This document shows positions 6,756 through 48,517 of a stretch of 64,000 nucleotides of DNA, in pieces (position 1 is the first letter of the stretch; the number at the start of each line of letters is the position of its first letter). The notes under the pieces were generated by a model that was not told the DNA's origin, did not search any database, and worked only from the letters and a program-made list of their open reading frames with translations. Source of the stretch: Candidatus Shapirobacteria bacterium GW2011_GWF2_37_20. GTDB lineage: Bacteria; Patescibacteriota; Microgenomatia; UBA12405. Where the stretch lies: assembly GCA_000989305.1 (NCBI GenBank), contig LBTB01000005.1, forward strand, positions 4,409-68,408, given 5' to 3'. The position numbers and the translations under genes were made by a program.

Positions 6756-6782
6756 AACAGAAATAGGTTATCATTAAACAGT

Positions 6783-7481: not shown

Positions 7482-7488
7482 AAAATAA

Positions 7489-10338: not shown

Positions 10339-10353
10339 GATATAATTTAAGTC

Positions 10354-28419: not shown

Positions 28420-30063
28420 TTAGGAGTTTTCTTCCAGTTCGATGATGCGTTGGAGAATTGCCAGGCTACCAAGATAGACGGGTTCGACACCGGCGAGATT
28501 GAGAGAACCGGCACCGAGGTTTTTAGCCTTAGAATAAGGGGTGTCGGAGGTGTAGTTGATGATACCAATATCAAAGGGGGTGGAATTGAGATCAACCATG
28601 GTGCCACGGGGAGTTTGTTGATCATAGGTGGCCTCGGTAATAGCGGAAAGATAGGGGCCATTTTCCATTTCGATAACGGTGAGATCGTTTTGGGAATATT
28701 TTTTTAGGAGGGGTTCATTTTCTAAAAAGGTACCAAAGACGGTAACAGATTTTTGGTTGGTGAGAATGGAACCCTGGGAGTTGTTAAAAGGGAAGGAGGT
28801 GTTGAAACAATTTTTGAAAAAGTAGGAATTTTGCGAATGTTCGTCAAAAACCAGACGAGGAATCTGGAGATCGCCAACTTCAGAATTAAGAACAGCGGCT
28901 TTACCTAAAATATAGACACCTTTGACGGCGGCAACATTTTCCAAAACCTTATTTAGGACATGATAAGCGGCAAAACCGAGAGGATAGTCGATGTTAAAAA
29001 TCAGAGCATCACTTTTGGCAATTTTACTGGGTTTGCTAATTTTCAGACGAGGGTCAAGATATTTTGATTTAGAAAAAGACTTGACGGGGAAAATTTGAGT
29101 GTTGACATCGAGATAGTGGGCGGAAGGAGTGGTTTGAATATTAAGATTGTCTTGAATTTTTTGCCAATCCTTTTGGTATTTTTTATCGCTGACAAAAAAT
29201 TTGGAGAGATAATAGAGAAGATCTTGGGGAGGGATATAAGGACAGAGGTCATTGCAATTTTCCGGGGCAATTTTAAGAAGTTTTTTTTCTGATTTGAGAG
29301 CAAAACCGGTAATGATGTTTAGAAGTGAATGAGAATTACTACTGACAAAATAGACGCGTTGACGGGAAAGATGAAAAGATTTTGAGACACTGAAGGAAAT
29401 ATTTTTCCACCAGTGCTGGGTGGTTTTGGTGTAGTCAATCCAGGAACCAGCCAAAAGACGGAGGCGGATGTTTTGGGGGCGGTGATACATTCTCTTTAAA
29501 CGAAGACGCCAATTTTTACCAAGAGCGATTTTAATTTTTTGCCAATCTTCAGCCGATAAGTTGACAACTTTTAGAAAGTCGGGAGAAGTTAGGGCTTTTT
29601 TAAACTGAGAATATTTGGGGTAGGTGGAAGTGGCGATTTGGTGGAATTTATTCCATTCGAGTTGGTAGGCAATCAGAAGATTAACAATGTCGTCAACATC
29701 GGTGACGGAACTGATGAAGGAGGCGGCAACACCGGTTTTTCGGTTTAAAAAACGGGTACGGCGACGGGCGGTAACGGCAAGTTTTGACCATTTAGTGACG
29801 TCAGGAAAACCGGCGTCAGAAAAAACCTGAGGATTTTGACCCATGACAACAATTTTGGTGATGTCGACAACTTTGGGTAGACGAAGAAGGGAGTAAACAA
29901 TGGCGGAGGGATCGAGACGGGTGGGGTCGCGGGCAAGGGGGTGTAAAATTGTGTCCATTTTTAGGTAAGAATTGGTGAGAGAATGAACGGTAACCTCAAG
30001 ATTGCTTTTGAGGGCAGAGCGATAAGTACGAATGTGGAGGTCAATAGAATCAATGGAGGACAT
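28420..30063 (-). CDS. Hypothetical protein with a C-terminal nucleoside phosphorylase/MTA-nucleosidase-like (PNP_UDP_1-like) domain
   Basis: The C-terminal about 230 aa contains GKAAVLNSEVGDLQIP and TVIEMENGPYLSAI, which resemble the MtnN-type motifs G.AG.L...GD and vEMEs.A.A. The N-terminal about 300 aa is unrecognised. Confidence 0.35.
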   Translation of the reverse strand: MSSIDSIDLHIRTYRSALKSNLEVTVHSLTNSYLKMDTILHPLARDPTRLDPSAIVYSLLRLPKVVDITKIVVMGQNPQVFSDAGFPDVTKWSKLAVTARRRTRFLNRKTGVAASFISSVTDVDDIVNLLIAYQLEWNKFHQIATSTYPKYSQFKKALTSPDFLKVVNLSAEDWQKIKIALGKNWRLRLKRMYHRPQNIRLRLLAGSWIDYTKTTQHWWKNISFSVSKSFHLSRQRVYFVSSNSHSLLNIITGFALKSEKKLLKIAPENCNDLCPYIPPQDLLYYLSKFFVSDKKYQKDWQKIQDNLNIQTTPSAHYLDVNTQIFPVKSFSKSKYLDPRLKISKPSKIAKSDALIFNIDYPLGFAAYHVLNKVLENVAAVKGVYILGKAAVLNSEVGDLQIPRLVFDEHSQNSYFFKNCFNTSFPFNNSQGSILTNQKSVTVFGTFLENEPLLKKYSQNDLTVIEMENGPYLSAITEATYDQQTPRGTMVDLNSTPFDIGIINYTSDTPYSKAKNLGAGSLNLAGVEPVYLGSLAILQRIIELEENS

Positions 30064-30118
30064 TAGAACATTATAAACATTATTAGAAAAGATGACGGGG
30101 GTAGATGATATAATTTAG

Positions 30119-32743
30119 TTGAATATGGAAAACTTAGGTAGTCCCCAAGAAAAAGCGGCAAGAAGGCCGGAAATTAATAGGGTGAAGGAGTTAATAAAAG
30201 TAGCAAATAGTGTCAGGCAAAATGAAGATCCGGACCGTCCTGTCATGGATGCGGGATATAAAGACGTGGTTAGGAGTTTTGGTTTACAGGGAGTAGAGAC
30301 GGTTGATGATTTGTTTAATAGGACAGATGCACCAAATTATAACCCGGGCAAAGCAAGGGAAGCATTAAATGTGATGGCAACGGCGGTTTACGAGACGATG
30401 AAGGAAGAGGGAAAAGGAAAACTGGTAGTAGCGGGAACATCTTCGGTTGAAAAATATTTACCAAGTGAGTTCGTGGGCAGAGATAAGGGTGATCCTGAAG
30501 GAAGCCGTTTTGCTTCGATGGTGGTACAAAATTTTATTGATAAATTCGGAACGGAAGAAAAGAGAATTGAAGTTTCAAACACTTTAGAATATCTAGATTA
30601 CATAAAAAATAGCGGATACAACAGGGGAACATTTTTAGCAGAACAAGCTGATGAGACGTATGCAAATTTAAAAAAGATTAGGCCAAATGTAATGGATAAA
30701 GAAGAAATGGAGGCCTATGTAAAGGCAATTGATTATGTGTCTGGATTAAAAACCAAGAATGTGGTGGCTGAATCTCCAAAGAATAAAACCGGCGAAAGCG
30801 TTGAAGATCCAAAGAAAAAAATCGGGGAAAAAGCGAGACAGAGTGTTGAAGATATTATAAACGAGAAATTAGAAAAACATCCTTTAGCGTTTGATAAATC
30901 CGAAATGCCGTCGGACTCTGACACAGAAGAGGAAAGAGAAGAAAAGTTGAGAAGAAGAGAGTTAAAAATAGAAAAAAGAGGGGAGGGAGTGGCAAGGGTA
31001 TTAAACCAGTTTGATATGAGGGGAAGGGGCGAAAGATCAGAGCTGGAAATAATGGGACCTGTTAGTGTTGATGAAATAAGACATACATTAAAAGAGATGG
31101 AAGATAGCGGTAGAGATGTTAGCGATCTGACTTTGAATTCTCGTAAGTTTGGGAAATTGATAGACATAACAAATGACATAAACGATAAAATTAAGGCGAT
31201 TGAAGAGGGCGATGCAGAAAAAATTGAGAAATCAATTGTGGTGTTGGGGAAAAATGGTCAAGTGTTGAATAAGGCTGAAATGATGGAATTACGAACAGAA
31301 ATAAAAATGAGGAGTTTTTTGAATGATTTTTTTCTAGCGACGTCTGATGCCCACGATATTGAAAGTATAGCAAAGACAATGATTGCCTTTCACAAAGGTG
31401 ATACAGATAAAGACTGGGACAAAATGTTTATAAGTTTTTTCCTGAAAAACACTGAGAAGAAAGATGGTGATGGTAAGCTGAAAGAGCTTGGTTCGGCAAA
31501 TGGTTTGTTTGTTGATGTGGCGTGGGATTTGAGACAGGATGCATATTTTAATTATGGTGGTGAAAACGTTAATAAAGATGTTGAAAGCGGTATATTAAAT
31601 GAAATTGTCAAGCGAGAAGATCTTATGCGTGAATACGCAAGAACAAAAGGGAAGGAGCTTGATTTTAATAGTCCAAAAGATGAGGCTAGGACTAGCTTTC
31701 TTAAAGTTTCATTGTTGATGGGTAAAAGTAAGGAATATAAAATTGACAAAAATTATTATACGAATTTGAGAAACGACTTAAACCTAGAAAGGAAAGAGAT
31801 TGTAAAGAAGTATATGATCGAGGAGATTGTAAAAAAGGTTGAGGCTAAGAATCCTGATTTAAGAGGTATTTATACAAAAGAGGAGGCAGAGAGGGCATAT
31901 GAGTTGGCGAGAAAACTATCGGTAGCAACATATACAGACTCTGCCGCAAACATAGCATTTGCAGACGGAGATGATTATAGTGAACTAATTTTATTCAAAG
32001 CGTTGAGATATCAAGACGGGGTGGAGGTGGTAGTAGAAGTTGATGACAAGGGTGTGAAGCATAGAAAGCCAGCCAAAAATAAACCCGTTGGATCAACTGA
32101 GACAATAAAATATATCGAGTCGCTGACGTCGCCATGGTTAGCTACGTTTGCAAAGGTCGATGCGGATAGGGGGGCTTGGAAGGTTTTAAGGGCGGAGGAT
32201 ATTGATATTAATAAAATTAATCCAAAGTCTGAGTCGACTTATCATTTTGGATCAATAATATTGAAGAAGGTCCAAGAGGCTAAGTTGATATTGATGTCAG
32301 GAGCTTCTGCAAAGGATGTTATGGATCCTGATAAAACTCAAAAAGTTTTTGAAAGATTATCAAAAGTTGTGGCGGAGGCAGACAAAGCTGGCTGGAACGT
32401 ATTTAATCCGGAGTACTTTAAGTTACCACCAGTTGACAAAGACCATGATAGGCTAATTGAGGATTTGGTTAGAGCTCAACGATTTATGAGATTTGTTTAT
32501 GTTATGGGTTTGTTGGAGAGGGCGACAAAAACATCTTTGTACGGATGGACCAGAACGACATATGACGAATATGTAAAATTACTTATGGATAGCGGAATGT
32601 TTACTGACGTGAATGGTGGACAAAACGAAAAGTTTATTTCAGAAAAGCAACTTGATTGGATAAATGGTGCTTATCGTCCAAGACAAATATTTGATTTGTT
32701 TGAAAGTCGGGAAAGAGCGAAGAAAAGAAAATATTTTAGGTAA
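30119..32743 (+). CDS. Large hypothetical cytoplasmic protein (874 aa, E/K-rich)
   Basis: Long ORF with no TM helix and no recognisable catalytic motif. Confidence 0.4.
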   Translation: MNMENLGSPQEKAARRPEINRVKELIKVANSVRQNEDPDRPVMDAGYKDVVRSFGLQGVETVDDLFNRTDAPNYNPGKAREALNVMATAVYETMKEEGKGKLVVAGTSSVEKYLPSEFVGRDKGDPEGSRFASMVVQNFIDKFGTEEKRIEVSNTLEYLDYIKNSGYNRGTFLAEQADETYANLKKIRPNVMDKEEMEAYVKAIDYVSGLKTKNVVAESPKNKTGESVEDPKKKIGEKARQSVEDIINEKLEKHPLAFDKSEMPSDSDTEEEREEKLRRRELKIEKRGEGVARVLNQFDMRGRGERSELEIMGPVSVDEIRHTLKEMEDSGRDVSDLTLNSRKFGKLIDITNDINDKIKAIEEGDAEKIEKSIVVLGKNGQVLNKAEMMELRTEIKMRSFLNDFFLATSDAHDIESIAKTMIAFHKGDTDKDWDKMFISFFLKNTEKKDGDGKLKELGSANGLFVDVAWDLRQDAYFNYGGENVNKDVESGILNEIVKREDLMREYARTKGKELDFNSPKDEARTSFLKVSLLMGKSKEYKIDKNYYTNLRNDLNLERKEIVKKYMIEEIVKKVEAKNPDLRGIYTKEEAERAYELARKLSVATYTDSAANIAFADGDDYSELILFKALRYQDGVEVVVEVDDKGVKHRKPAKNKPVGSTETIKYIESLTSPWLATFAKVDADRGAWKVLRAEDIDINKINPKSESTYHFGSIILKKVQEAKLILMSGASAKDVMDPDKTQKVFERLSKVVAEADKAGWNVFNPEYFKLPPVDKDHDRLIEDLVRAQRFMRFVYVMGLLERATKTSLYGWTRTTYDEYVKLLMDSGMFTDVNGGQNEKFISEKQLDWINGAYRPRQIFDLFESRERAKKRKYFR

Positions 32744-32881: not shown

Positions 32882-34555
32882 CTAGTCCAAATCACCAACA
32901 TCTGGATTTTTTACTTGGAAATCTTTACCCTTTTGGTCTTGTCGTTTTTTCCTCCAGGAATCAAATGGCATAAAGACTTTCTTATCAACATAATCAGTGG
33001 TTTTATCGCTAATTTCTTCGCGAATTCCACCTGTTACGCTTGATGCAACAGCGCCGCCTAGACTTGTTGCCATGTTCTTACTAAGACCTTCACCAATAGC
33101 CTGGCCCCAAGGAGAGGGCTTAATCATAAAGATAAATTGAGGCACCATTTCAGGAAGCTTGCTGATGAGAGCGAGGCCAGCCAAACCAATGGCGGCACCG
33201 ATAATGGAGGGGGAAATACCGCCAGCACTGAGAAGTGATGGGGTCCAAACTGCGGGTTGAAAAAGACCACCGGTAGAACCGACATTAGAAACAGAAACAG
33301 CATCGATAATCATATTCAGAAGAACTAAAAATATTCCAACTACAGGGAAAACAGCCATGTTGGCGGCAACATCAAGAATCCAGGAGGAAAAACCTATTTT
33401 TGCATTAGGAAAAGCACCCATGCCAATCTCGAGCGGAGCTAGAACAATTTTGAAAATGAGAGTGACGTAACACTTGAGAAGACCAAAATAGAGTTTGATC
33501 AACCAAATGGCGACGATAATACAAAGAACAATGGGAACTAAGAGACCACCAATAAGACCACCGGCGGCACCGCCAACCACACGACCAACCATGTCACCAA
33601 CAAAATTAGCTCCGGTTCCAAATATGGCACCAACACCACCGAGAAGGAAACCGAGAACAATGCTACCCAAAAGACCGCCAAGCATAACAAGTGAAAGCCA
33701 ACCGGGGACAGCCCGATAGGTTAACATTTGCATGTCGCGGAGAGTAGGGTTGCTGAGGCTTGAAAATTTAAAGTTTTCAGGGGTAAAAATAGCACCAATT
33801 CCATTAAGAATGTCGCTGACAATCGGAAAGCCAGAACCCCACCAACCGGGGAAGAGACTATCAGTAAGAGGTACACCTTTGACGGAAAAGAGAAGGGCGA
33901 CGACGAGAGCCTGGATGAAATTGAACAAATCGATAACCAGACCAGCGATAGCGTAGGAAAAGGTGACTAAAATGAGAGTGGTTATCAATTGGGGGATGGC
34001 ACTTTGAACGGTGACGACGGCCTGGGGACTAATTTTGACCCGAAGCATAATCATAATGCCAATGGCTATAAAAATTATTGAGGTAAGGACATAGACGGCA
34101 TTTCTGAAACCGCGCCAAAGAGGCAATAAAAACTGAAGGCCGTTAAAACCAACACCTTGGGCATAGGCGGGTTTACCTAAAAAAGAATCCCTAACTTGGG
34201 CAATATATTCAACGCCGGAAGCGGGAGGAGTATTGAGAGCGGCGACCATATTGTTCATAGTGCCAAAGGCCCCACCGGGAATATAGTTTTGAATAACGTT
34301 GGTAGTAGGAGTACTGGATTCAAAAATTTCAGCAGGAATTTCACCAACCATACCAGTAAAAAGAGACATCATGTTACTACTCATGGCTTCATTAGTCCAA
34401 GATTCCAGGCCGCTACCATTTTTAATAGCGGACTGTTTTTGAAGAAAGAGATTGGGTTGGGATTGGGCAAAGGCAGGAGAGACAAAGAAAGACCCGCTTA
34501 GACCAAAGGTTACAGCAAGGAAAAGTAAAAAACCAAATAAAGATCGGCTGGACAT
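32882..34555 (-). CDS. Signal-peptide-bearing polytopic (about 8 TM) Gly-rich membrane protein; possible VirB6/TrbL-like channel component
   Basis: Signal peptide ...FFVSPAFAQS, an about 120-aa extracytoplasmic region, then about 8 hydrophobic helices. It lies just downstream of the pilin-like array on the same strand. Confidence 0.35.
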   Translation of the reverse strand: MSSRSLFGFLLFLAVTFGLSGSFFVSPAFAQSQPNLFLQKQSAIKNGSGLESWTNEAMSSNMMSLFTGMVGEIPAEIFESSTPTTNVIQNYIPGGAFGTMNNMVAALNTPPASGVEYIAQVRDSFLGKPAYAQGVGFNGLQFLLPLWRGFRNAVYVLTSIIFIAIGIMIMLRVKISPQAVVTVQSAIPQLITTLILVTFSYAIAGLVIDLFNFIQALVVALLFSVKGVPLTDSLFPGWWGSGFPIVSDILNGIGAIFTPENFKFSSLSNPTLRDMQMLTYRAVPGWLSLVMLGGLLGSIVLGFLLGGVGAIFGTGANFVGDMVGRVVGGAAGGLIGGLLVPIVLCIIVAIWLIKLYFGLLKCYVTLIFKIVLAPLEIGMGAFPNAKIGFSSWILDVAANMAVFPVVGIFLVLLNMIIDAVSVSNVGSTGGLFQPAVWTPSLLSAGGISPSIIGAAIGLAGLALISKLPEMVPQFIFMIKPSPWGQAIGEGLSKNMATSLGGAVASSVTGGIREEISDKTTDYVDKKVFMPFDSWRKKRQDQKGKDFQVKNPDVGDLD

Positions 34556-34593: not shown

Positions 34594-36015
34594 TTAAAAC
34601 CAGGATGCGGGACGAAGTAATGATTGCATTTCCTTATAGAGGGCATCAGCTCGGTAGCCAGGGTCGGGGATAGGATTATTTTGATTAGTGGTAGTGGTGC
34701 TGGAAAAAGACTTATCCAAGAGATTGTTGTTTTTGAGAGTGGAGGCAGGAATCATGTTGGAATAAGCCATTTCGGCAACCTTGGTATTATCAACTACTTT
34801 GGCGTCGTAGGTACTGGAAACTTTGATATCAACACTTTTTTCAAGAGAATTACCGGCGGTGACACGTTGAAAAAAAGCGGCAATAAGAGCGATGCTGGAA
34901 TCAACGGGTTGGTCGCGAGCAATTTCGGAATTTTTTTCAACATTGTCACAAAGAGAGGGGTTGGATAGAGTTTTTTGGCCAGCATAATTGATAAAGCCAA
35001 GATTTTGGTTGGCATTGGCGGCGGCGGCGGCAGGGAGAGTCCGGTCGAAGGAGGTTGGGACGGGACAGGCAGGATTGCCGTTGGCGTCGGTACAATTATA
35101 GTTAACAACAGTGACCTTGCTATTGACGTTGCCCTTGGGAATGTAGTTTAACTGAGAGTACATTAATTCATAGAGATCTTTAGTCAGAGGTGAAAATGAT
35201 TTTCCCTTAGAACGAGTGGAATAACAGCCGTAGGGGCCGGAACAGTTACCACCATAATGGCTTTGGACGTTGCTTAAGACATTTGAAGGAAAGGTGACGG
35301 GAGAGGCAGCGGGGGAAGAATAGTAGATGGGTTCGTCTTTGAGACCAAAAAGAAGCTCGCTGATATAAACTGGACGACAAGAATTACCGGTTGATTGATT
35401 GGTGAGTTCCTGGCAGGTGCCACCACAAGACCAGGCGATTTGATAATCCTGAACAACGGTGTCGATGGGGTTGGCTTGGTCGAGAGATTGGGCAATTTCG
35501 AGTAAAAATTGGCTACGATAATAAAGGAGCTGGGAATAAGGGGTGGTTCGAAGGGAGGCACTAGTGCCGTCGGTGTCAAAATTGGTGAAGGCGGCTTTGG
35601 CCCTGTCGGGGGTGCACTTGATACCACCACGAGCAAAGAATGTTTGATAATTGCGATAAAAATCGTTACTGAGATTTTCGACATCCATTTCGCCAGTGAT
35701 AGGACCCTGCGCCGTGTAATCAACATATTCAAAAATTGGATTACCGTTGGCGTCAGTGGTGCCAGTATCCTGTTGAACGGGTTCCCAGGACTTGGAAATT
35801 GTGGCAACACCTTCACAGGTGATGATATTGTCTTCTAAGGTGTTGGAGTAGGTGTCGTTGCTGGGAACTTCCGGAGCCAAAGCAGGTCCAGGAACAGAAC
35901 GGGTGCTGGGTTGCATTTGAATAGGGGGGAAAAGGAAGTCAATGAGATTAAAGGCTTTTGCCGGAGCCGTTGAAAAAAAGAAAAAAATAGCGATGAGGGC
36001 AGAGACTTTTTTCAA
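34594..36015 (-). CDS. Secreted hypothetical protein (473 aa, Cys-containing)
   Basis: N-terminal signal peptide MKKVSALIAIFFFFSTAPAKA with no further TM helix. Confidence 0.4.
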   Translation of the reverse strand: MKKVSALIAIFFFFSTAPAKAFNLIDFLFPPIQMQPSTRSVPGPALAPEVPSNDTYSNTLEDNIITCEGVATISKSWEPVQQDTGTTDANGNPIFEYVDYTAQGPITGEMDVENLSNDFYRNYQTFFARGGIKCTPDRAKAAFTNFDTDGTSASLRTTPYSQLLYYRSQFLLEIAQSLDQANPIDTVVQDYQIAWSCGGTCQELTNQSTGNSCRPVYISELLFGLKDEPIYYSSPAASPVTFPSNVLSNVQSHYGGNCSGPYGCYSTRSKGKSFSPLTKDLYELMYSQLNYIPKGNVNSKVTVVNYNCTDANGNPACPVPTSFDRTLPAAAAANANQNLGFINYAGQKTLSNPSLCDNVEKNSEIARDQPVDSSIALIAAFFQRVTAGNSLEKSVDIKVSSTYDAKVVDNTKVAEMAYSNMIPASTLKNNNLLDKSFSSTTTTNQNNPIPDPGYRADALYKEMQSLLRPASWF

Positions 36016-36018
36016 GAT

Positions 36019-36450
36019 TTAGCCGGGAATGATAAATTGAGTAATGTTGACGCCGGTGAATTGTTGAATAAAGCTTAAGATTAACCAGGAAGCGATTATG
36101 CCGATAAGTCCAATAAAAGCCATGGTTAGGGTTGAAGAGGCGGTGGCAACAGCCTTTTGTTCACCGCTACTGAGAAGGTATTTAAAGCCGCCACTAATAA
36201 ACATAAAGAGAAAAGCTAAACCGGCAAGTAAAACAATTACCTGGAGAACATTGAAGAAGAGACATTCAAAACCTTGGATGGTGGCAATGTCATTGTAGGT
36301 AACATTACCCAGGCCATTGGGGTTAACAGTAACGCTTTTGACACAGCGACCGGTGGTAGTCCAAGATTGAGGACTTTGGGCAAAAGCAGGAGAAACAAGA
36401 AACAAGAGATTGGAAACTAGAAAGAAGAAGAAAAAGAACATGGTTTTCAT
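36019..36450 (-). CDS. Small 2-TM pilin-like protein, paralog 1 (T4SS pilin/VirB2-TrbC-like candidate)
   Basis: Signal peptide ...LVSPAFAQS, a Cys pair in the mature N-terminus, then TM1 ending in ISGGFKYLLSSGEQKAVATA and TM2 FIGLIGIIASWLIL. Confidence 0.5.
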   Translation of the reverse strand: MKTMFFFFFFLVSNLLFLVSPAFAQSPQSWTTTGRCVKSVTVNPNGLGNVTYNDIATIQGFECLFFNVLQVIVLLAGLAFLFMFISGGFKYLLSSGEQKAVATASSTLTMAFIGLIGIIASWLILSFIQQFTGVNITQFIIPG

Positions 36451-36524
36451 GGGTTAATTATAGCAAGAAAAACCCGGTCATTATGTCCATTGGGCACGCT
36501 GACCGGGTTGAAGTTTAATAAAAA

Positions 36525-36905
36525 TTATTTATTAAAGGTTGGAATGGTGATCCCGCTAAGAAGACTGATGCCAAAGATGGTTTCGATCAGCTTCATGATG
36601 GCGAAGGTGGCGAAAACGATAGCCAAACCAATTAAGGCATTGGTAATTTGATTGCGGGCAGTCTCGACATTTTTTTGGTCACCACCAGACATAACCCATT
36701 TTAAACCGCCCATGATAAGGATAAAAAAGAAAACTAAGGCGACAACAAGAAGAGCTAGAGAGATGGCTCCAGAGACGATACCGGAAGCGGTAATGCTGGT
36801 AAGAGGCTTAAAATCGCTGGTACCAGGAGTGAGTTCGATGGTGGCGGCATAAGCGGGAACGGCCAAGATAGCGTATTGAAGTTTGTTTTTGATTGAGGAG
36901 ATCAT
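36525..36905 (-). CDS. Small 2-TM pilin-like protein, paralog 2
   Basis: Signal peptide AILAVPAYAAT. Core motif IMGGLKWVMSGGDQKNVETARNQITNALIGLAIVF. Confidence 0.5.
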   Translation of the reverse strand: MISSIKNKLQYAILAVPAYAATIELTPGTSDFKPLTSITASGIVSGAISLALLVVALVFFFILIMGGLKWVMSGGDQKNVETARNQITNALIGLAIVFATFAIMKLIETIFGISLLSGITIPTFNK

Positions 36906-36958
36906 ATTTTTAAAATTAATAAATTTATTAATGAATTTTAACAGTAAGATAAGTTTTT

Positions 36959-37282
36959 TTAAAGGGTGGGCCAGGTTATTTGTAAGTTTTCGAGTCCGGT
37001 AACACCAAGCACAGTGCCAACAAGCTTGAGAACAGCGAAGACGCCGAAAATGACAACTATACCGATAAGGGCAAAGGTAATTTGGTCTTTGGCAACAGTT
37101 AATTTTTTAGGATCACCTTCGGTGCTAATTAAATGATAGCCGGCCATAATGAAATGCCAAATGAAGTAGACAGAGGCAACGAGAAAAAAGATGGAAAAAA
37201 CAGTTTGAATGACGTTGTTGGTGTAGGTGGTGGGGTCTTCAACTTGCTGAAGACCATTTTTTAAGAGGGGATTGAAAATCAT
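36959..37282 (-). CDS. Small 2-TM pilin-like protein, paralog 3 (start trimmed to the internal ATG)
   Basis: The ORF-track start at 37408 would overlap the upstream paralog by 119 nt. The ATG at 37282 (MIFNPLL) removes the overlap. Core motif IMAGYHLISTEGDPKKLTVAKDQITFALIGIVVIF. Confidence 0.45.
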   Translation of the reverse strand: MIFNPLLKNGLQQVEDPTTYTNNVIQTVFSIFFLVASVYFIWHFIMAGYHLISTEGDPKKLTVAKDQITFALIGIVVIFGVFAVLKLVGTVLGVTGLENLQITWPTL

Positions 37283-37289
37283 ATATTTT

Positions 37290-37652
37290 TTATAAACCCA
37301 TATTGGTAAACATGGTTTGAAGATCGAGGGGGTTGTTGAGGCCAAGGAGTTTGGAAATAAGAGTACCAAGACCAATGGCGATAACAACGATAAATAATCC
37401 CAAAACACCGTTGGTGAGTTTACTACGGTTCATTTCTAATTTTTTCTCGTCACCTTGGGTGGACATAAAGCCGTAACCGGCCAATATAATTTGGACGATA
37501 AAAAAGATAACAGCGATGATGGTGAGAACACCAATGAGTTGGCTGATCAGTTTTTCGAGCATGGTAGTGGCTTGGACACCATCGGTGGGGGAAAGTCCAG
37601 GACCCTTGAGGGTATATTGAACAGCTAGAAGTTTATTGGTTAGTGGGGCCAT
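37290..37652 (-). CDS. Small 2-TM pilin-like protein, paralog 4
   Basis: Core motif ILAGYGFMSTQGDEKKLEMNRSKLTNGVLGLFIVVIAI. Confidence 0.5.
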   Translation of the reverse strand: MAPLTNKLLAVQYTLKGPGLSPTDGVQATTMLEKLISQLIGVLTIIAVIFFIVQIILAGYGFMSTQGDEKKLEMNRSKLTNGVLGLFIVVIAIGLGTLISKLLGLNNPLDLQTMFTNMGL

Positions 37653-37962
37653 AGATTTGTGGACTTAAAATGTTAATTCCGGTGAGTCGTCCGACCAAAC
37701 CGGCAATGATAAAAGCAGCGGAAATAATGATAAGTCCAACCAGACTTTGCCAAATTTTCATCCAGGCGAGTTCGGTTTTTTTGGTGTCGCCATTAGCATT
37801 GATGTAATCAAAACCGGCAAAAATTAGTTGAGCAATCATGAAAATGCCACCGGCAATAGCGGCAAATTTTAAAACATTGCCTAAGAAATCAAAAAGACCT
37901 TGACCGGGAGTGGTGCTGGTGTATTTGGTGGGATTTTGGATAGTACCAAAGAGTCCAATCAT
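37633..37962 (-). CDS. Small 2-TM pilin-like protein, paralog 5
   Basis: Core motif IFAGFDYINANGDTKKTELAWMKIWQSLVGLIIISAAF. Confidence 0.5.
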   Translation of the reverse strand: MIGLFGTIQNPTKYTSTTPGQGLFDFLGNVLKFAAIAGGIFMIAQLIFAGFDYINANGDTKKTELAWMKIWQSLVGLIIISAAFIIAGLVGRLTGINILSPQIYGPTNQ

Positions 37963-37965
37963 AGT

Positions 37966-38289
37966 TTATAGAATAGATAATCCAGTAATAACTTCAACAA
38001 TTTGGATTATAAAGTAACTGAGAAAAATTACCAAGAAGCCAATAAGAGCGTCGGTAATCAAGGTTTTTCCGGTAGCGGCTTTTTTTTGATCACCGGAACC
38101 GGCACTGGCAATCATCATAAAACCACCGGCGATTATAAGGACTATAAGAATAATTCCGGCTATGGTTAGGCCATTTTTGACAATTAAAGTAATGAGAGAG
38201 GCGGGGTCGGGATAAGTTTGAGAAATGCTTTTACCGCCACCCAAGGGGGTGTCACCAAGATTGACGGCAGCTAAGACAAGGTTGGTCAT
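37966..38289 (-). CDS. Small 2-TM pilin-like protein, paralog 6
   Basis: Core motif IAGGFMMIASAGSGDQKKAATGKTLITDALIGFLVIFL. Confidence 0.5.
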   Translation of the reverse strand: MTNLVLAAVNLGDTPLGGGKSISQTYPDPASLITLIVKNGLTIAGIILIVLIIAGGFMMIASAGSGDQKKAATGKTLITDALIGFLVIFLSYFIIQIVEVITGLSIL

Positions 38290-38394
38290 AAATATATAGT
38301 TGGATTATACAATAAATAAGGATAATAATGGTGTTATAATACGCCACAAAATTAATTGATAGAATAAATTTATAAATTAATATTTGCCAAAAAT

Positions 38395-39252
38395 ATGAGA
38401 AAAACTGCCCTAATAGTATTTGCGTGTATCTACCTTAGTTTGGGGATAATTAGAATTGAAGCAAAAGCAGTTAGTCCAACTGTAATACCAACAGCGATAC
38501 CAACAGTGGAGATAATGCCAACGGTGGCGGCGAGAGAGAACATTACTGAGGTATCAAACAAGACGGCGATAAAGACGACTGAGGTGAAATGGAAAGGATG
38601 GAATAGTATAAGTTTCTTGATTTCAGAAGCGATAAAGAGAGGGGTGCCGGAAAATACAATAGTGTTACTGTTACTTTTACCTTTGGTGGCAACTTTAGCC
38701 TCGTTTTTGCACTATGTCGGAGGATTATCCGGATATGGGGTTTTTACACCAACGATGATGGCGGTGGCTTTCTTGGCAACCGGAGTGACGGGCGGATTGG
38801 TTTTATTTGCGGTAATATTGGCGATTACATCCCTGAGTAATATTTTTCTTAAAAAAATGAAGCTGCATTTTTGGCCAGCAAGATCGATTTCTTTGCTGTT
38901 TGTGAGTCTGGGAACTTTTGGGGTAATGATAGTGTCGGCACTACTGAACATCTCTGAAGTGAGTAAAATTTCCATTTTCCCGATTTTGTTTATGATTTTG
39001 CTAACGGAAGAGTTTGTGAGAACCCAATTAATAAAAAGCAAAAAGGAGGCAGTGAGATTAACAATTGGTACCCTAATATTGGCGGGGGTGGGAGCAATTT
39101 CAATGGAAATAAAAGGGTTGCAGGAATTAGTTTTAAAATATCCGGAGATGTTGGTTTTGATGGTAATTGTGATAAATATAGTGGTCGGAAGCTACGGGGG
39201 GATTCGGTTGACAGAGATAAAGAGGTTTAAAAATGCAATCAGAAAAAAATAA
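38395..39252 (+). CDS. 7-TM membrane protein of the 7TM_transglut type (no transglutaminase domain), partner of the ATP-grasp ligases
   Basis: Signal peptide, an about 70-aa Pro/Thr-rich extracytoplasmic segment, then seven hydrophobic helices. It lies immediately upstream of RimK-type ATP-grasp genes. Confidence 0.55.
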   Translation: MRKTALIVFACIYLSLGIIRIEAKAVSPTVIPTAIPTVEIMPTVAARENITEVSNKTAIKTTEVKWKGWNSISFLISEAIKRGVPENTIVLLLLLPLVATLASFLHYVGGLSGYGVFTPTMMAVAFLATGVTGGLVLFAVILAITSLSNIFLKKMKLHFWPARSISLLFVSLGTFGVMIVSALLNISEVSKISIFPILFMILLTEEFVRTQLIKSKKEAVRLTIGTLILAGVGAISMEIKGLQELVLKYPEMLVLMVIVINIVVGSYGGIRLTEIKRFKNAIRKK

Positions 39253-39277
39253 ATTAATAATGAATAATTAAAAATAT

Positions 39278-40666
39278 ATGTTGGGCATAGATTTAAAACA
39301 GTACCGGCAGTTTTTGACAAAAAACGAAAGAAACAAGGTGTATCTACGCAAAAACAGTTCGCAAGGACGGTCAATTGCTGATAACAAATATAAAACCAAA
39401 ATAAGACTGGCAAGGGCGGGAGTAAGTGTACCAGAATTGATGGCCAGATTTAGAAAAGGAGAAGATCTAAGGAGTTTTGAATGGGGGAAATTGGAGGCGA
39501 ACTTTGTGATTAAGCCGGTATTGGGCTATGGAGGAGAGGGAATACTTATTATAAGAAGGAAACTAGATTCTAGAGACGAGAGAGGGGAAGAAAGATATCT
39601 GATGATGAGCGGGAAGATAATTGGCCTGGAAGAAATTAAACTACATTGTCAGGAAATTTTAGCAGGTAAATATAGTATGCACGGAACGGCTGACAACGTG
39701 ATTATTGAAGAAAGAATTAAAATTCACCCGATGTTTTTTTCACTAACCAAGGTGGGTACTCCGGATATCAGAGTAATTGTGTTTAATTGGGTGCCAGTGA
39801 TGGCCATGTTGAGAATTCCAACCGAAAAAAGCGGGGGAAAGGCGAATTTACAGCAAGGAGCTTATGGTTTGGGAATTGATTTGGCAACGGGAATTACTAC
39901 CTTTGGGATTGAAGGGAAGGGTGAAGAGGTGCGAAAAATTTTTGATTATCGAAAAAAAAGAATGATTAAGGTAAATGGGATTAAGATTCCTTTTTGGAAA
40001 GAAATTTTAGAAACAGCAGTAAAATGTCAGAGGGCAATCCCGGGATTGGGATTTATGGGGGTTGATATAGTGCTGGATAAAGAAGACGGACCAAAGGTGT
40101 TGGAAGTTAATGCCAGACCAGGCTTGTCAATTCAGCTGTGCAACAAGGCGGGGATGAAGAGAAGGATTGAAAAAATCGATGATATAAACGTGAGAAGTGA
40201 TGAGCACGCCATCTCTTTGGCGAAGTATTTGTTTGGAGAGAAGTTTTCAGATAAGGTCGCTGAGAAGGAACAGGAGAAAAAGATTCAGCCTCTCGAGATT
40301 ATTAAAATGAAAATTCCTCGTGGTTTTAAACCTGATTTACAAAAAAGTCCAATTTTAAAACAAGGGAAACACCGGGTGGTGGAGGTAAGGGCGAAAGTTG
40401 ATACCGGAGCGTTTAGAAGCTCGATTGACAGAAATTTGGCGGATAAATTGGGATTGATGTCGGTGGAAAAGATTTTATATTTTCGGCATTACAAATCAAG
40501 CCTGGGAAAACACAAGGACAGACCGGTAATCGGAGTGACTTTTTGGTTGCAAGGAAAAAAGGTAGTAACGGCAGTTAACGTAGCCGATAGAAGTAAGCTT
40601 CGAACCAAGTTTTTGCTGGGAAGAAAAGATTTGGAAGGATTTTTAATTTCGGCCAAAAAAATATGA
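39278..40666 (+). CDS. ATP-grasp ligase (alpha-L-glutamate-ligase-related, ATPgrasp_ST-like) fused to a C-terminal retropepsin-like aspartic protease domain
   Basis: ATP-grasp motifs IKPVLGYGGEGI and GVDIVLDKEDGPKVLEVNARPGLS. The C-terminal about 130 aa carries KVDTGAFRSS (the D-T-G-A aspartic protease hallmark, as in Pfam Zn_protease/TIGR02281-type). Confidence 0.7.
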   Translation: MLGIDLKQYRQFLTKNERNKVYLRKNSSQGRSIADNKYKTKIRLARAGVSVPELMARFRKGEDLRSFEWGKLEANFVIKPVLGYGGEGILIIRRKLDSRDERGEERYLMMSGKIIGLEEIKLHCQEILAGKYSMHGTADNVIIEERIKIHPMFFSLTKVGTPDIRVIVFNWVPVMAMLRIPTEKSGGKANLQQGAYGLGIDLATGITTFGIEGKGEEVRKIFDYRKKRMIKVNGIKIPFWKEILETAVKCQRAIPGLGFMGVDIVLDKEDGPKVLEVNARPGLSIQLCNKAGMKRRIEKIDDINVRSDEHAISLAKYLFGEKFSDKVAEKEQEKKIQPLEIIKMKIPRGFKPDLQKSPILKQGKHRVVEVRAKVDTGAFRSSIDRNLADKLGLMSVEKILYFRHYKSSLGKHKDRPVIGVTFWLQGKKVVTAVNVADRSKLRTKFLLGRKDLEGFLISAKKI

Positions 40667-40700
40667 AGAAGTTAATAAATATTATTTTTTTTAATTAAAA

Positions 40701-41681
40701 ATGACTAAAATAGCATTGTTTTTTGGGGGGAAAATCAGTAAACATTTGGTGTTGGTGAGAAATGCGGCGAGGAAAGAGGGGGCGGAACTGGACTTGGTGT
40801 CATATAACAATGTTTGTTTTGAGACGGAAACAGGGAAGATAAGTTTACGGGGAAAAGACGTAAATGATTACGATGTGCTATTTTTTAGGACGACGGGGAA
40901 ACACTGGGAGGAAGTTGACCTGATTATTAATAGTATAAAAAAAGAGGACATGGTGGTAATTGATCCTTTGGTTCGAGACGGAAAACCAAGCTATGCCTGC
41001 AAAGCGTGGCAGATGTTGAAATTAAAAGAAGCAGGGATTGATGTGCCCAGAAGTGTGTATGGATCTTTGTGGTATTTATATGAAGTTATGGCCAGAAATG
41101 ATAATACCCACCAACGAATTTTTTCTTCCGGTGAAGCTGCCAGACAGGCACAAAGTCAGGAAAAGATACTGGAAGGAGATTATGAATTTAATTTTCCGGT
41201 GATAATTAAGGGGAGCGGCGGAGATAGGGGAACAAGAGTGTTTAAGGCTAACAATTTGAAAGAATTAGAAAAATTGGTCAGAGACTTGAGAAAAACGGAA
41301 ACTGAGGGAGGGAAACGATATTTATTACAGGAATACATCGAAAATGATGGAGACTTTAGGGTTTTGATACTGGGAGAAAAAGTGTTGGGGGTAATGAAAA
41401 GAGCCAGGGCGAATAAAAATGAGTTTAGGAATAATTATAGTGCCGGGGGAACAGTGGAAGTGGCTGATTTGCCGGAAGAAGTGAAAGAGTTAGCGGTTAG
41501 GGCGGCGAAAACTTGTGGGCTGGCGGTGGCGGGAGTTGATGTGGCATTCAGAGATTTTGATATGAAAAAACCGGTGATTTGGGAGGTGAATAAGGGCCCA
41601 CAATTTAAGGGTTTTATGAAAGCCACAGGAGTTGATGTGCCGACAGAAATTGTTAAATATTTGGTTTCACTTAAAAAATAA
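40701..41681 (+). CDS. RimK-like ATP-grasp ligase, paralog 2
   Basis: FPVIIKGSGGDRGTRVF and GVDVAF...KPVIWEVNKGPQF match RimK-family motifs. Confidence 0.75.
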   Translation: MTKIALFFGGKISKHLVLVRNAARKEGAELDLVSYNNVCFETETGKISLRGKDVNDYDVLFFRTTGKHWEEVDLIINSIKKEDMVVIDPLVRDGKPSYACKAWQMLKLKEAGIDVPRSVYGSLWYLYEVMARNDNTHQRIFSSGEAARQAQSQEKILEGDYEFNFPVIIKGSGGDRGTRVFKANNLKELEKLVRDLRKTETEGGKRYLLQEYIENDGDFRVLILGEKVLGVMKRARANKNEFRNNYSAGGTVEVADLPEEVKELAVRAAKTCGLAVAGVDVAFRDFDMKKPVIWEVNKGPQFKGFMKATGVDVPTEIVKYLVSLKK

Positions 41682-41685
41682 AATT

Positions 41686-42594
41686 ATGAAGAGAAAAATT
41701 GTTACTTTTACCATGTCGCTTCGACAAAGCCAATTTGAGGTGGACAGACTTGAAGGGGAAGCCAATAAAATGGGAATTGAAGTGAATAGGGCGCTTTATA
41801 GAGAATTAAGCTTTGATCTGAAAGACGGGGCGGCGAAAGTATTCGTCCGAGGCGAGGAATTGACAGCCGAGAATACTTTAGGATTGTGGTTTAGGGTAGC
41901 GGGAACCAGAAGCGGAAAGTATACCGAAGCGAGAAATCTAGTAATCAGAATCCTAAGAGGAAAAGGAGTGTTTTGTGTTAATGAAAAAGGTTATCTGATG
42001 TGGACGAGAATGGGAAAAATTGCTCAGCATGGGGTGTTTTTGGAGAATAATATTCCGGTGGTGCCGACAATGGTTTTTTATACAAAAGAACAGGTTTTGC
42101 AAAGTAAAATAGGAGAAGAATTCGGGTGGCCGGTGATAGCTAAGCATGAGAGGGGGTATCAAGGGAAGTCTGTCAGAAGATTTGAAGAGAGAAAAGAATT
42201 AGAAAAATTTGTTAGGAAAATTAACGAAAAAAACGTGGGAATGTTTTTGTGGCAAAAGTATTTACCAACTAAGTGGGATATCCGAGCAGTAATTGTTGAC
42301 GGAAAGGCGATTGGGGGAATGAAGAGGTCGGCGGTGGGAGAGGAGTTTAGAAGTAATTTTTCATTGGGAGGAGAGGTGGAAGCGTGGAAATTGAGTGACG
42401 ATGAGATAAAATTGGCGGAGAAAGTGGCAAATGTTTGTGGACTGGATTATGGTGGGGTAGATATTATGAAAGACGAAAAAGGGAATAATTATATTCTGGA
42501 GATAAATCGGCAATGTCAGTTTCAGGGTTTTGAAAAAGCGACAGGAATCAATGTGGCCAAAAGAGTAGTTGAAATGATAGCCAATAAAAAATAG
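41686..42594 (+). CDS. RimK-like ATP-grasp ligase, paralog 3
   Basis: WPVIAKHERGYQGKSV and GGVDIMKDEKGNNYILEINRQCQF. The ORF track starts at 41632 and overlaps the previous gene; the ATG at 41686 (MKRKIVTF) is preferred. Confidence 0.75.
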   Translation: MKRKIVTFTMSLRQSQFEVDRLEGEANKMGIEVNRALYRELSFDLKDGAAKVFVRGEELTAENTLGLWFRVAGTRSGKYTEARNLVIRILRGKGVFCVNEKGYLMWTRMGKIAQHGVFLENNIPVVPTMVFYTKEQVLQSKIGEEFGWPVIAKHERGYQGKSVRRFEERKELEKFVRKINEKNVGMFLWQKYLPTKWDIRAVIVDGKAIGGMKRSAVGEEFRSNFSLGGEVEAWKLSDDEIKLAEKVANVCGLDYGGVDIMKDEKGNNYILEINRQCQFQGFEKATGINVAKRVVEMIANKK

Positions 42595-43159: not shown

Positions 43160-43233
43160 GGGCAATTAGCTCAGTTGGTTAGAGCACCGTCCTGATAAGA
43201 CGGGGGTCAATGGTTCGAGTCCATTATTGCCCA
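43160..43233 (+). tRNA. tRNA-Ile (anticodon GAT)
   Basis: Cloverleaf: acceptor GGGCAAT/ATTGCCC, D-arm GCTCAGTTGGTTAGAGC, anticodon stem CCGTC/GACGG with loop CTGATAA, T-arm GGGTCAATGGTTCGAGTCCATT. No CCA is encoded. Confidence 0.85.
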
Positions 43234-43422
43234 CAGGTGTTATTTTTGTAGTGTTAGAATTAAATATGGAAGAGAAGAAGTATAGTTTCTTAAAAGTTTT
43301 GGGAATTTTGGGGGCAACGATATTGATTATTTTTGGAAGTGTGGACAATATTTGGCGGACGCTAAAACTGGGCTGGAATAAGGTAGCAAAAAAATAAGGG
43401 GAGCCTGATATAATTTGAGGAT

Positions 43423-44067
43423 ATGTCGCAGCTGAAATATATAATTGATTTGTTTTTGCATATTGATAAGAATTTGGCCGCAGTGATTGTGCAATATGGG
43501 GTCGGGAGCTATGTATTGTTGTTTATGATTATTTTCATGGAAACAGGCTTTGTGGTGACTCCATTTTTACCCGGAGACTCACTGCTTTTTGCGGCCGGAG
43601 CTTTGACGGCTTCAATGGGGGTTTTTGATATCAAACTATTATGGCTATTAATGGTGGCAGCGGCCTTTTTGGGCGATACGGTGAACTATTGGATAGGACA
43701 TTTTATTGGACCTCGGGCCTTTCAATCAAAAAGTAGGTTTTTGAAAAAAGAATATTTAGATAAAGCCCAGGCTTTTTATGATAAACACGGGGGAGTGGCA
43801 ATTGTGTTGGCACGTTTTGTACCGATTGTACGGACCTTTGCCCCTTTTGTGGCCGGAATTGGAAAAATGCATTACACCAGATTTTTGTCGTTTAATGCGG
43901 TCGGAGGATTGCTTTGGGTGAGCATAATGTTGTTGTCGGGATACTTTTTTGGGAATATCTCTTTTATTAAAAATAATTTTCACTATGTAGTAGTGGTAAT
44001 TATTTTGATTTCAGTGGTACCAATCTTTGTGGAATGGTTGAAGAGCAGAAGAAAGAGGGTAAAATAG
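43423..44067 (+). CDS. DedA/SNARE-associated family membrane protein
   Basis: VTPFLPGDSLLFAAGAL is the DedA signature. Confidence 0.75.
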   Translation: MSQLKYIIDLFLHIDKNLAAVIVQYGVGSYVLLFMIIFMETGFVVTPFLPGDSLLFAAGALTASMGVFDIKLLWLLMVAAAFLGDTVNYWIGHFIGPRAFQSKSRFLKKEYLDKAQAFYDKHGGVAIVLARFVPIVRTFAPFVAGIGKMHYTRFLSFNAVGGLLWVSIMLLSGYFFGNISFIKNNFHYVVVVIILISVVPIFVEWLKSRRKRVK

Positions 44068-44070
44068 TTT

Positions 44071-44499
44071 ATGGACAATGAAGGAGAAATAAAATTAGAA
44101 AAAATCAGACAGACAGTTAATTTGGAAAAGATTACGACTGAAAATTTTGTGAATAAGTGGAAGGAAATTTTTGGAGAAGAGACAACTGTTAGAAGAGAAA
44201 GGTTTGTTAATCAAAGCGGTAAAGAAATCAGTGGAGTGAAGGATACAATTATAGAAAACGTAAAAATAACTCCTGTGGAAAATTTGATTTTTTTGACATA
44301 TCAGGGGGGAGTTGGTCAAGCTGACAAATATATAGCGATTGATAGTAAGGAATATCTTATGGGGGTACAAGATCATGATGGTGGCGAAAAGTCATTTATC
44401 TTGGTTCACAATACAGAGAATAAAAAGACCGGAGAAAATAGGCAGACAACAAGACGCTTTACGCCAGCAAGAGCACAGACCTCGATAAATCAGGTATAA
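44071..44499 (+). CDS. Hypothetical protein (142 aa)
   Basis: Unremarkable ORF. It is a distant paralog-like neighbour of the next ORF; both contain the RER(F/V) motif. Confidence 0.35.
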   Translation: MDNEGEIKLEKIRQTVNLEKITTENFVNKWKEIFGEETTVRRERFVNQSGKEISGVKDTIIENVKITPVENLIFLTYQGGVGQADKYIAIDSKEYLMGVQDHDGGEKSFILVHNTENKKTGENRQTTRRFTPARAQTSINQV

Positions 44500-44925
44500 T
44501 TGGGCATGGAAGTAAAGAATAATATTGAGCCGAAGGAAGAAAATATTTCAATGGAGTGGAAAAAATTACCGGCGAATGAAGCGGTGAAAGTTTTCCGAGA
44601 AGTAATTCCAAATGCATCGATTAATGTGCAGAGGGAAAGGGTGCTATTTGTCGAAGGAAAAAAAGTAAATTATGAAGAGGAAGAGGTGATGTTTTTAATA
44701 AGTTCTCTTGAGGGAAAAAATAATGAGAAGCTAAAATTAGCCTGGAGAACAGATGTTGGGGGAAAGGGTGGTGGGGTATTGGAGTTTGAAGGGAAAATAA
44801 GTATAGCCCAACAGAAAATTGAAGGGGGAAATGATTTGGTGTTGATTGGCGAAAAAGGGGTGACAGATGATGGTAAAAAATGGGAATCTATCCGAAGATT
44901 TCAAGTAAAAGGGAGACAGATTTAA
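44500..44925 (+). CDS. Hypothetical protein (141 aa)
   Basis: Adjacent to and the same size as the previous ORF, and followed by a terminator hairpin. Confidence 0.35.
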   Translation: MGMEVKNNIEPKEENISMEWKKLPANEAVKVFREVIPNASINVQRERVLFVEGKKVNYEEEEVMFLISSLEGKNNEKLKLAWRTDVGGKGGGVLEFEGKISIAQQKIEGGNDLVLIGEKGVTDDGKKWESIRRFQVKGRQI

Positions 44926-45033
44926 CCCATTGATTTGGAGGTAGAGATTAGATACAATATGAACACTTGATGTATAAGCTTCAAATTCGGAATGGAAACA
45001 ATAATACGTGAGAGTATTAGGTCCGAATTTTGG

Positions 45034-45059
45034 GAGCCGACGCAAGTCGGCTTTTTTTA
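45034..45059 (+). terminator. Rho-independent terminator hairpin
   Basis: GCCGAC-GCAA-GTCGGC stem-loop followed by TTTTTTTAT. Confidence 0.55.
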
Positions 45060-45095
45060 TGCTAAACATCGGCTCTTTTTAAATAATAGGCTCTT

Positions 45096-45171
45096 GGGCC
45101 TGTGGCTTAGTTGGTTATAGCGCTTCATTTGCAATGAAGAGGTCGGGAGTTCGAATCTCCCCAGGTCCACC
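45096..45171 (+). tRNA. tRNA-Ala (anticodon TGC)
   Basis: Acceptor GGGCCTG/CAGGTCC with the G3:U70 Ala identity pair, anticodon loop TTTGCAA, T-arm GGGAGTTCGAATCTCCC. Confidence 0.85.
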
Positions 45172-45309
45172 TACGCCATTAGAGAAATGTACCTAGAATT
45201 AGGAAAAGAATCTGAATTGATTGTTTTCCTTGACTATGTACGCACATTAACAATCTATTGAATATTTTATTTTTAATTTTTATCTTGGCAACTAAACTGA
45301 GTTGCTTAA

Positions 45310-48297
<2,988 letters not shown>

Positions 48298-48395
48298 TAC
48301 AGCTCTTAGGCCGCCAGCACTGGTGGTTTAGGAGCTGATTAGGCAGCTCAATTTAGAGGCCAAGAAAAATTAATATAAAATAACTTTACTTTTTG

Positions 48396-48517
48396 AGTCT
48401 CGGTCATCAGAGCGAGGTGGCTCCACCTTTTCCCATTCCGAACAGAGAAGTGAAACGCCTCAGCGCCGACAATAGTCTCCCTGCAAAGGGTCCTGAAGAT
48501 AGGTCGTGGCCGGGACT
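48396..48517 (+). rRNA. rrf: 5S ribosomal RNA
   Basis: CCGAACAGAGAAGTGAAACGCCTCAGCGCCGA matches the 5S consensus (CCGAAC.CAGAAGTGAAAC...AGCGCCGA). The terminal helix is AGTCTCGGTC / GGCCGGGACT. Confidence 0.85.

Follow-up and report, generated by a model that had tools for sequence, protein, structure and literature searches.

What keeps six diverged copies of one small membrane protein gene side by side in a bacterial genome? The question is raised by a 64,000-nucleotide (nt) stretch of contig LBTB01000005.1 (hereafter, the window) from Candidatus Shapirobacteria bacterium GW2011_GWF2_37_20. This organism belongs to the Patescibacteria, a group that accounts for a large fraction of the bacteria not yet cultivated and whose members attach to host cells. 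At positions 36019-38289, on the minus strand, the window holds six co-directional, tightly packed open reading frames (ORFs) with products of 107-143 amino acids (aa). An earlier description made from the letters alone (the sequence-only reading) had called them a six-gene tandem array of pilin-like paralogs with a conserved core of two transmembrane (TM) segments and had suggested antigenic variation, functional variation, or differentiation into major and minor pilins. We label the genes a to f in transcription order; paralogs 1 and 3 of the sequence-only reading are our f and d. We conclude that the six genes probably encode six non-interchangeable VirB2-like pilin subunits (family PF18895) of a chromosomal, monoderm-type type IV secretion system (T4SS) of this Shapirobacteria cell.

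Six complete genes of one T4SS pilin family

The genes lie at 37966-38289 (class a, 107 aa, the first of the array), 37633-37962 (b, 109 aa), 37290-37652 (c, 120 aa), 36959-37282 (d, 107 aa), 36525-36905 (e, 126 aa), and 36019-36450 (f, 143 aa), all on the minus strand. Each is complete and full length, and there are no silent cassettes. All six products match PF18895 (T4SS_pilin), with E values of 2e-8 to 7e-5. The gathering threshold of this family is 26.6 bits; b (27.7 bits), c (26.8 bits), d (34.6 bits, with the long ORF scanned), and f (33.5 bits) pass it, and e (25.6 bits) and a (23.2 bits; E, 7.3e-5) are short by 1-3.4 bits. Precomputed PF18895 matches are present in close relatives of both e and a. 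The size (~100-140 aa), the two helices, and the short polar loop are likewise those of the family. Membership of the six proteins in PF18895 is firm, and the array stands as it was first described.

Two hydrophobic segments occur in the C-terminal two-thirds of every protein (Kyte-Doolittle). The sequence-only reading had called for a multiple alignment that could tell a positionally conserved motif from generic TM composition. All 15 pairwise local alignments of the six paralogs score 6-20 standard deviations above shuffled controls, the six-way alignment contains invariant glycines and a G-D/E-x-K loop motif, and the G...G-D-x-K...G...G columns are conserved over 105 family members. Given these scores and columns, the core reflects positional homology and not mere TM composition. 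The paralogs are nonetheless less alike than the 30-40% identity first given for them: identity is 23-37% within the aligned core and 14-31% in global alignment, the latter measured between the window proteins and the other classes in related loci.

The start of class d was a point of doubt. A GTG at 37408 would create an overlap of exactly 119 nt with class c, which an internal ATG at 37282 avoids. Orthologues of class d all start with MI(F/T/Y)NP, and the database protein US68_C0004G0027 has 107 aa; because both agree with the ATG at 37282, this start, proposed in the sequence-only reading, is the correct one. The start of class c overlaps the end of class b by 20 nt. Exact database matches of window proteins are US68_C0004G0023 and US68_C0004G0027, both from Candidatus Shapirobacteria bacterium GW2011_GWE1_38_10.

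An AlphaFold2 model of class e, built from the 105-sequence alignment, is a helical hairpin with helices at residues 40-72 and 77-111, a 4-residue loop, and a predicted local distance difference test (pLDDT) score of >90 in the core. The loop joining the two helices of these proteins bears the conserved motif G-D-x-K(K). We considered and rejected the pilins of type IV pili: none of the six proteins has the class III motif G|F/M-T-L-x-E, and each has two C-terminal hydrophobic helices. The label "pilin-like" thus holds for the T4SS (VirB2-like) family PF18895 and not for type IV pilins.

Matches to the TrbC/VirB2 family (PF04956) come from class c. The window protein reaches E 0.02 and 15.5 bits, under the cut-off of 27.9 bits, and five of the nine class c orthologues match PF04956 in the correct register, with a best E value of 5.2e-7. 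Class c therefore appears, on these profile matches, to be the class with the clearest TrbC/VirB2 link. Classes e and f give weak matches (E, 3.2e-4 and 1.6e-4, respectively; ~20 bits against a cut-off of 40) to the Mbov_0395 family (NCBIfam NF045849).

Six orthologue classes in a fixed order

We compared nine loci in detail, namely, the window and L004 and L006-L012. All nine agree in pilin gene number (six), gene order, and flanking genes, and the pilin genes are of similar size. Position by position, orthologue identity is 51-98% for the five closer loci and falls as low as 44% for the three most distant. In a neighbor-joining tree, the 54 proteins form six clades, and every locus contributes a single protein to each of them. 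The ratio of nonsynonymous to synonymous substitution rates (dN/dS), a check named in the sequence-only reading, was calculated for the window against its relatives and is 0.03-0.36 throughout the six classes; most of these comparisons have a saturated dS (>1), and reliable ratios come only from the closest pair (with L004), for which the range is 0.03-0.22.

The same order is found on a wider scale. An alignment search with class e retrieved 80 species-level genomes with a class e relative, and their pilin ORFs were typed with class-specific hidden Markov models. The arrangement abcdef was found in 64 loci, abcdeef in 2, and abcdeeef in 2. In 10 other loci the array is cut by a contig end, and 2 are distant and unclassifiable, one of which, from Curtissbacteria, also has six genes. 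Among the 68 complete classifiable loci, the order is always a-b-c-d-e-f; the sole change is the presence of extra class e copies, in L052, L072, L083, and L093. These amplified copies have diverged N termini, one with a Cys-rich domain. Conservation, too, is highest in class e, which has a mean pairwise identity of 62% and 45 columns conserved at ≥90% over 64 species, compared with 14-32 such columns in the other classes.

These comparisons show six subunit types, each fixed and conserved in its own right, rather than a variable repertoire. Of the explanations first offered, antigenic variation does not agree with the fixed order in 68 loci, the single clade per class, and the low dN/dS, and functional or major/minor differentiation is borne out by six distinct, individually conserved classes.

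Leaders, cysteines, and N termini

The following statements are based on class alignments of the nine lineages. Class f has a clear Sec-type signal peptide (AFA|QS in the window), and a signal peptide is present in this class in 9/9 lineages. The leader of class e, which ends in AYA|A, is short, atypical, and of variable length, and only MKLIAQ is left of it in some orthologues. The original call of two cleavable signal peptides is thus only partly secure. Classes a to d in the window genome have no leader or only a few residues of one; class a starts with a short LxLAA/LAQ-type segment and lacks a classical signal peptide. Some class b and class d orthologues do bear leaders, which end in AQ, and the window's b and d begin where the leader-bearing orthologues (for b, L010 and L011) would be cleaved after A-Q. 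A-x-A-Q is invariant at the cleavage site in the VirB2 alignment and recurs in e, in f, and in some b and d orthologues.

All lineages compared (9/9) have the Cys pair first seen in class f (C37 and C73 in the 143-aa ORF), with C73 located at the start of TM1, and at least two cysteines occur in 62 of 64 species. The description of the N termini as unrelated holds between classes; within each class they are conserved. In some relatives, large extracellular N-terminal domains (~170-240 aa, some of them Cys-rich) are fused to the two-helix core, as at L100:4320-5777 (Curtissbacteria) and in the third class e copy of L093. These fusions fit an N terminus displayed at the surface.

Two putative transcription units

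A terminator-like hairpin lies between e and f (36464-36509, minus strand). It consists of a 10-bp G+C-rich stem followed by TTTTTCTT, and the e-f intergenic region folds with -25.4 kcal/mol in RNAfold. The loop exceeds 8 nt, so that a standard terminator scan misses the hairpin and RNAfold finds it. A hairpin with a T-run occurs at the e-f junction in 72 of the 80 genomes (90%), with differing stem sequences, and at 0% of the a-b, b-c, c-d, and d-e junctions. Just past it, a TATAAT -10 box (36457-36462, minus strand) lies 6 nt upstream of the class f ATG, and TAnAAT is found 5-7 nt before this ATG in 56 of 64 species. The arrangement suggests a near-leaderless separate transcript for f and the two genes downstream of it. 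A second TATAAT (TGTATAAT, an extended -10; 38304-38309, minus strand), 14 nt upstream of the class a ATG and conserved in six lineages, is the putative promoter of an a-e unit. Taken together, the signals are consistent with two transcription units: a to e, up to the terminator-like hairpin, and f with a secreted-protein gene and a VirB6-like gene, behind the -10 box.

Also upstream of the array, at 38328-38347, is the 20-nt element GTGGCGTATTATAACACCAT, which occurs once in the window and is found unchanged in six lineages that share only ~60% identity in their proteins. We set back its reading as a shared operator, since it is unique in the window and bears TGTTATAAT on the plus strand, opposite to class a. 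More probably, it serves as the promoter for the divergent 7TM gene.

Genes downstream of class f

The first of the two downstream genes (34594-36015, minus strand), between f and the VirB6-like gene, encodes a 473-aa protein with a signal peptide and without a Pfam, NCBIfam, or PDB match. It is detectable in 25 of 72 genomes, with a median identity of 26%, and its length in relatives ranges from 265 to 755 aa. Judged by these comparisons, the fast-evolving component of the locus is the secreted protein and not the pilins. It is a candidate tip or adhesin component.

The second gene (32882-34555, minus strand), two genes downstream of f, encodes a 557-aa polytopic membrane protein and is kept downstream in 61/62 genomes. 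Neither the protein nor its 120 listed homologues gave a Pfam domain, and no NCBIfam family was found. Its AlphaFold2 model has a pLDDT of 71; in a Foldseek search of the PDB, the seven best matches are all TrwI/VirB6 chains of the R388 T4SS, a match that is weak (best E, 0.023; probability, 0.99; template modeling score, 0.23-0.40). The model makes the protein a candidate divergent VirB6. No meaningful PDB match came from sequence-profile searches in which the pilin family, the polytopic family, or the 473-aa protein served as the query.

The T4SS core and the wider window

VirB4, PrgI, and TrsD share the window with the pilins and with the VirB6-like candidate of weak fold similarity. On the plus strand lie a PrgI/VirB3-like gene (5832-6755; PF12666 PrgI, E 1.3e-5) fused to a CarboxypepD_reg domain, a TrsD-like gene (6783-7481; TrsD, E 7e-10), and a VirB4 ATPase gene (7489-10338; P-loop_TraG/AAA_10). 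The VirB4 scores 387.5 bits with the NCBIfam VirB4-like CD1110 family (cut-off, 325) and also matches the Mycoplasma integrative and conjugative element (ICE) VirB4 model. This core module, at 5832-10338, is presumably the one that the pilins serve. The module as a whole (5832-14485, plus strand) also holds a gene for a 1131-aa protein with a C-terminal Peptidase_C39_2 domain and two small ORFs. The T4SS core adjoins dnaN (14762-15880) and dnaA (16151-17515). A tblastn search with class e against 72,556 plasmids gave no match; therefore, the array is not a recent plasmid import.

Directly upstream of the array, a divergent cluster (38395-42594, plus strand) encodes a 7TM_transglut protein and three ATP-grasp (ATPgrasp_ST/RimK-like) ligases. 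The array is flanked by the 7TM_transglut gene in 64/64 related genomes and by the first ATP-grasp gene in 62/62. On the other side, 28420-32743 encodes a 547-aa protein of the DUF6909 family (E, 1.5e-151) and, convergently, a highly charged 874-aa protein without a family; at the position of the latter, related loci have a gene of 681-872 aa whose sequence is poorly conserved and was detected in 11 of 57 genomes. GC skew over the window (1-64000) is positive in each 2-kb bin on both sides of dnaA (~0.00-0.48) without a sign change, which would be unexpected if the origin were beside dnaA. Further along, at 43160-48515, three protein-coding ORFs (43423-44925), one of which has a VTT domain, lie between the genes for tRNA-Ile (43160) and tRNA-Ala (45096), and 23S and 5S rRNA genes follow; no 16S rRNA gene was detected within the window.

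A proposed assembly and the points against it

By analogy with VirB2/TraA and the R388 model, we propose the following scenario for the array. Each pilin would be inserted in the membrane with both ends outside and its basic loop inside, and the leaders of f and probably e would be cut off at AxA|Q/A. The VirB4 ATPase, ~26 kb away, would power the extraction of subunits and their assembly on the VirB6-like platform, and the product would be a heteromeric pilus or a short conduit across the wall. Class e, a candidate major subunit because its conservation is the highest and no other class has extra copies, would form the bulk, with a to d as accessory subunits. Class f, presumably disulfide bonded and sharing a unit with the variable secreted protein, may sit at the base or tip interface. 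The structure would serve contact with the host cell or transport to or from it.

Several points weigh against this scenario. With hhalign, profiles of the family and of class c showed no homology to eight Agrobacterium-type VirB2 proteins (probability, 3% and 0.4%), a weak test given the low diversity of the profiles. A Foldseek search of the PDB with the class e model returned generic helical hairpins only (best E, 0.88), a nonspecific result. The tie to canonical VirB2 is thus made of a borderline sequence signal, the fold type, and processing motifs. The VirB4 gene is not adjacent to the array but lies beyond dnaA, and the roles suggested for e, f, and a to d draw on only conservation, copy number, and operon structure. 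The weakness of the VirB6 fold match and the saturation of dS, both given above, also count here. Finally, we know of no Patescibacteria T4SS on which a pilus was observed, so that the filament is inferred.

Alternative explanations

Three other explanations may be weighed against six VirB2-like pilin subunits. In the first, the two-helix proteins would stay in the membrane, where they might form a hetero-oligomeric ring, line the channel of the T4SS translocon, or belong to an unrelated complex, with "pilin" being just a family label. Monoderm T4SSs are described as generally lacking pili (PMC12857230 and PMC12102498). The failure of hhalign to find a sequence link to Agrobacterium VirB2 agrees with such a role, as do the ATP-synthase c-like hairpins among the fold matches of the class e hairpin and the weak match to the Mycoplasma ICE pilin-like family NF045849 (best E, 1.6e-4). 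We know of no demonstrated pilus for that family. Yet the class c orthologues match the TrbC/VirB2 Pfam family in the correct register, leaders and AxA|Q processing signals resemble those of VirB2, large extracellular N-terminal domains are built onto the core in L100 and L093, and a simple ring would hardly call for six distinct subunits. We regard a purely membrane-resident role as rather unlikely, given these features.

In the second, the array would be a repertoire for antigenic or host-range variation, made of interchangeable, fast-diversifying filament subunits. This idea was raised for such arrays in PMC12102498, by analogy with the virB2 paralogues of Bartonella and Anaplasma. The low identity between copies (14-31%), the class-specific and presumably exposed N-terminal regions, and the occasional amplification of class e with diverged N termini, one Cys-rich, speak in its favor. 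However, the same six classes occur in the same order in 68/68 complete loci, with one-to-one orthology across lineages and low dN/dS in every class; all six genes are complete, with no silent cassettes; and the variable gene encodes a secreted protein, not a pilin. In addition, the pilin series of Southlakia epibionticum is reported as essential, for SEML1_0017-0019 individually by transposon sequencing (Tn-seq), in PMC10633639. For the Shapirobacteria clade, an antigenic repertoire is largely refuted, and we would give it very little credence for this array.

The third, redundant duplicates that raise the dosage of one abundant subunit, is the least credible, for although the genes are tandem, co-directional, and tightly packed and class e is duplicated further in four species, duplicates would be homogenized or lost rather than kept as six stable classes across 68 species, 14-31% identical and with class-specific motifs, leaders, and cysteines.

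Six non-interchangeable pilin subunits remain our preferred explanation, and it has a stronger form: the six classes could be an obligate, ancient set that co-assembles to give a heteropolymeric T4SS pilus or conduit in which each class has its defined position. Sets of six are found in the Shapirobacteria window, in the Curtissbacteria genome L100, and in Saccharimonadia (S. epibionticum). We hold this stronger form to be doubtful for now.

Comparison with known systems

The kind of locus found here is already described in the literature, and the window's own instance very probably is too. According to Quinonero-Coronel et al. (2025; PMC12102498), 441 VirB2 arrays of 2-11 genes occur in 383 Patescibacteria assemblies, most abundantly in Microgenomatia and Saccharimonadia, with a mean intra-array identity of 25% and a maximum of 54%; VirB6 is scarce in Microgenomatia, and the arrays are suggested to be a host adaptation. 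A Shapirobacteria assembly, GCA_000992285.1, is listed in Table S1 of that study. Its arrays resemble ours in their tandem PF18895/PF04956 genes, their low intra-array identity, and their setting in a VirB4-bearing Patescibacteria genome. The study stressed variability, whereas fixed orthologue classes, an internal terminator, and a Microgenomatia VirB6 candidate were not found reported in the parts available to us. The fixed six-class orthology over ~68 species is an addition of the present analysis, as is the division of the array by a conserved terminator and promoter. The analysis also adds a likely bulk subunit (class e), the hypervariable secreted neighbor, and the VirB6 candidate.

The closest parallel in content is S. 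epibionticum ML1, in which six PF18895 pilins (SEML1_0014-0019) are encoded beside VirB6 (Wang et al., 2023; PMC10633639). That study calls the pilin series essential, and its Tn-seq rows for SEML1_0017-0019 are each scored essential; a 2025 review repeats the pilin finding (PMC12857230). The reported essentiality fits the non-redundancy that our six classes imply. Both loci have six tandem PF18895 genes, diverged but of the same fold, beside a VirB6-like gene, in a monoderm-type T4SS without a recognizable relaxase. In S. epibionticum (Saccharimonadia), however, the array is inside the virB4 cluster, downstream of VirB6; in the window, ~26 kb separate the array from virB4, and the VirB6-like gene lies downstream of it. 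The terminator that divides the window array and the hypervariable secreted protein encoded with it are further differences.

More distant systems share some of these features. The VirB2/TrbC/TraA pilins of diderms (PF04956) resemble ours in the small two-helix hairpin, the short basic loop, the AxA|Q motif at the predicted leader site of some classes, the C-terminal T-G motif, and the linkage to VirB6/VirB4. They differ in that the window host is monoderm, four of the six window pilins lack a classical leader, and sequence similarity is borderline. Such systems usually have one pilin gene each. Bartonella and Anaplasma also have several diverged tandem virB2-like genes beside a T4SS (cited in PMC12102498), but their copies are read as antigenic or host-interaction variants, whereas those of the window are stable in number, order, and sequence and under purifying selection. 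The Mbov_0395 family protein of Mycoplasma ICEs likewise is small, has two TM segments, and belongs to a monoderm system of the MPF-FATA type, yet it is encoded by a single gene and not by an array.

Implications for Patescibacteria

In the one Patescibacteria species tested, S. epibionticum, the T4SS, including the pilin series, is essential, according to PMC10633639. Fixed subunit types matter for models of how a wall-spanning T4SS is assembled in a monoderm cell, and they point to the fast-evolving secreted neighbor as a likelier determinant of host specificity than the pilins. The 557-aa protein offers a VirB6 candidate for Microgenomatia; judged from its model, it may be the VirB6 "missing" from that group in PMC12102498. 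If the sets of six were orthologous, the duplications would be older than the split of the Patescibacteria classes. If the six classes do co-assemble, theirs would be the first conjugative-type pilus made of several different VirB2 subunits, with class e as the shaft and class f and the hypervariable secreted protein as the host-recognition end.

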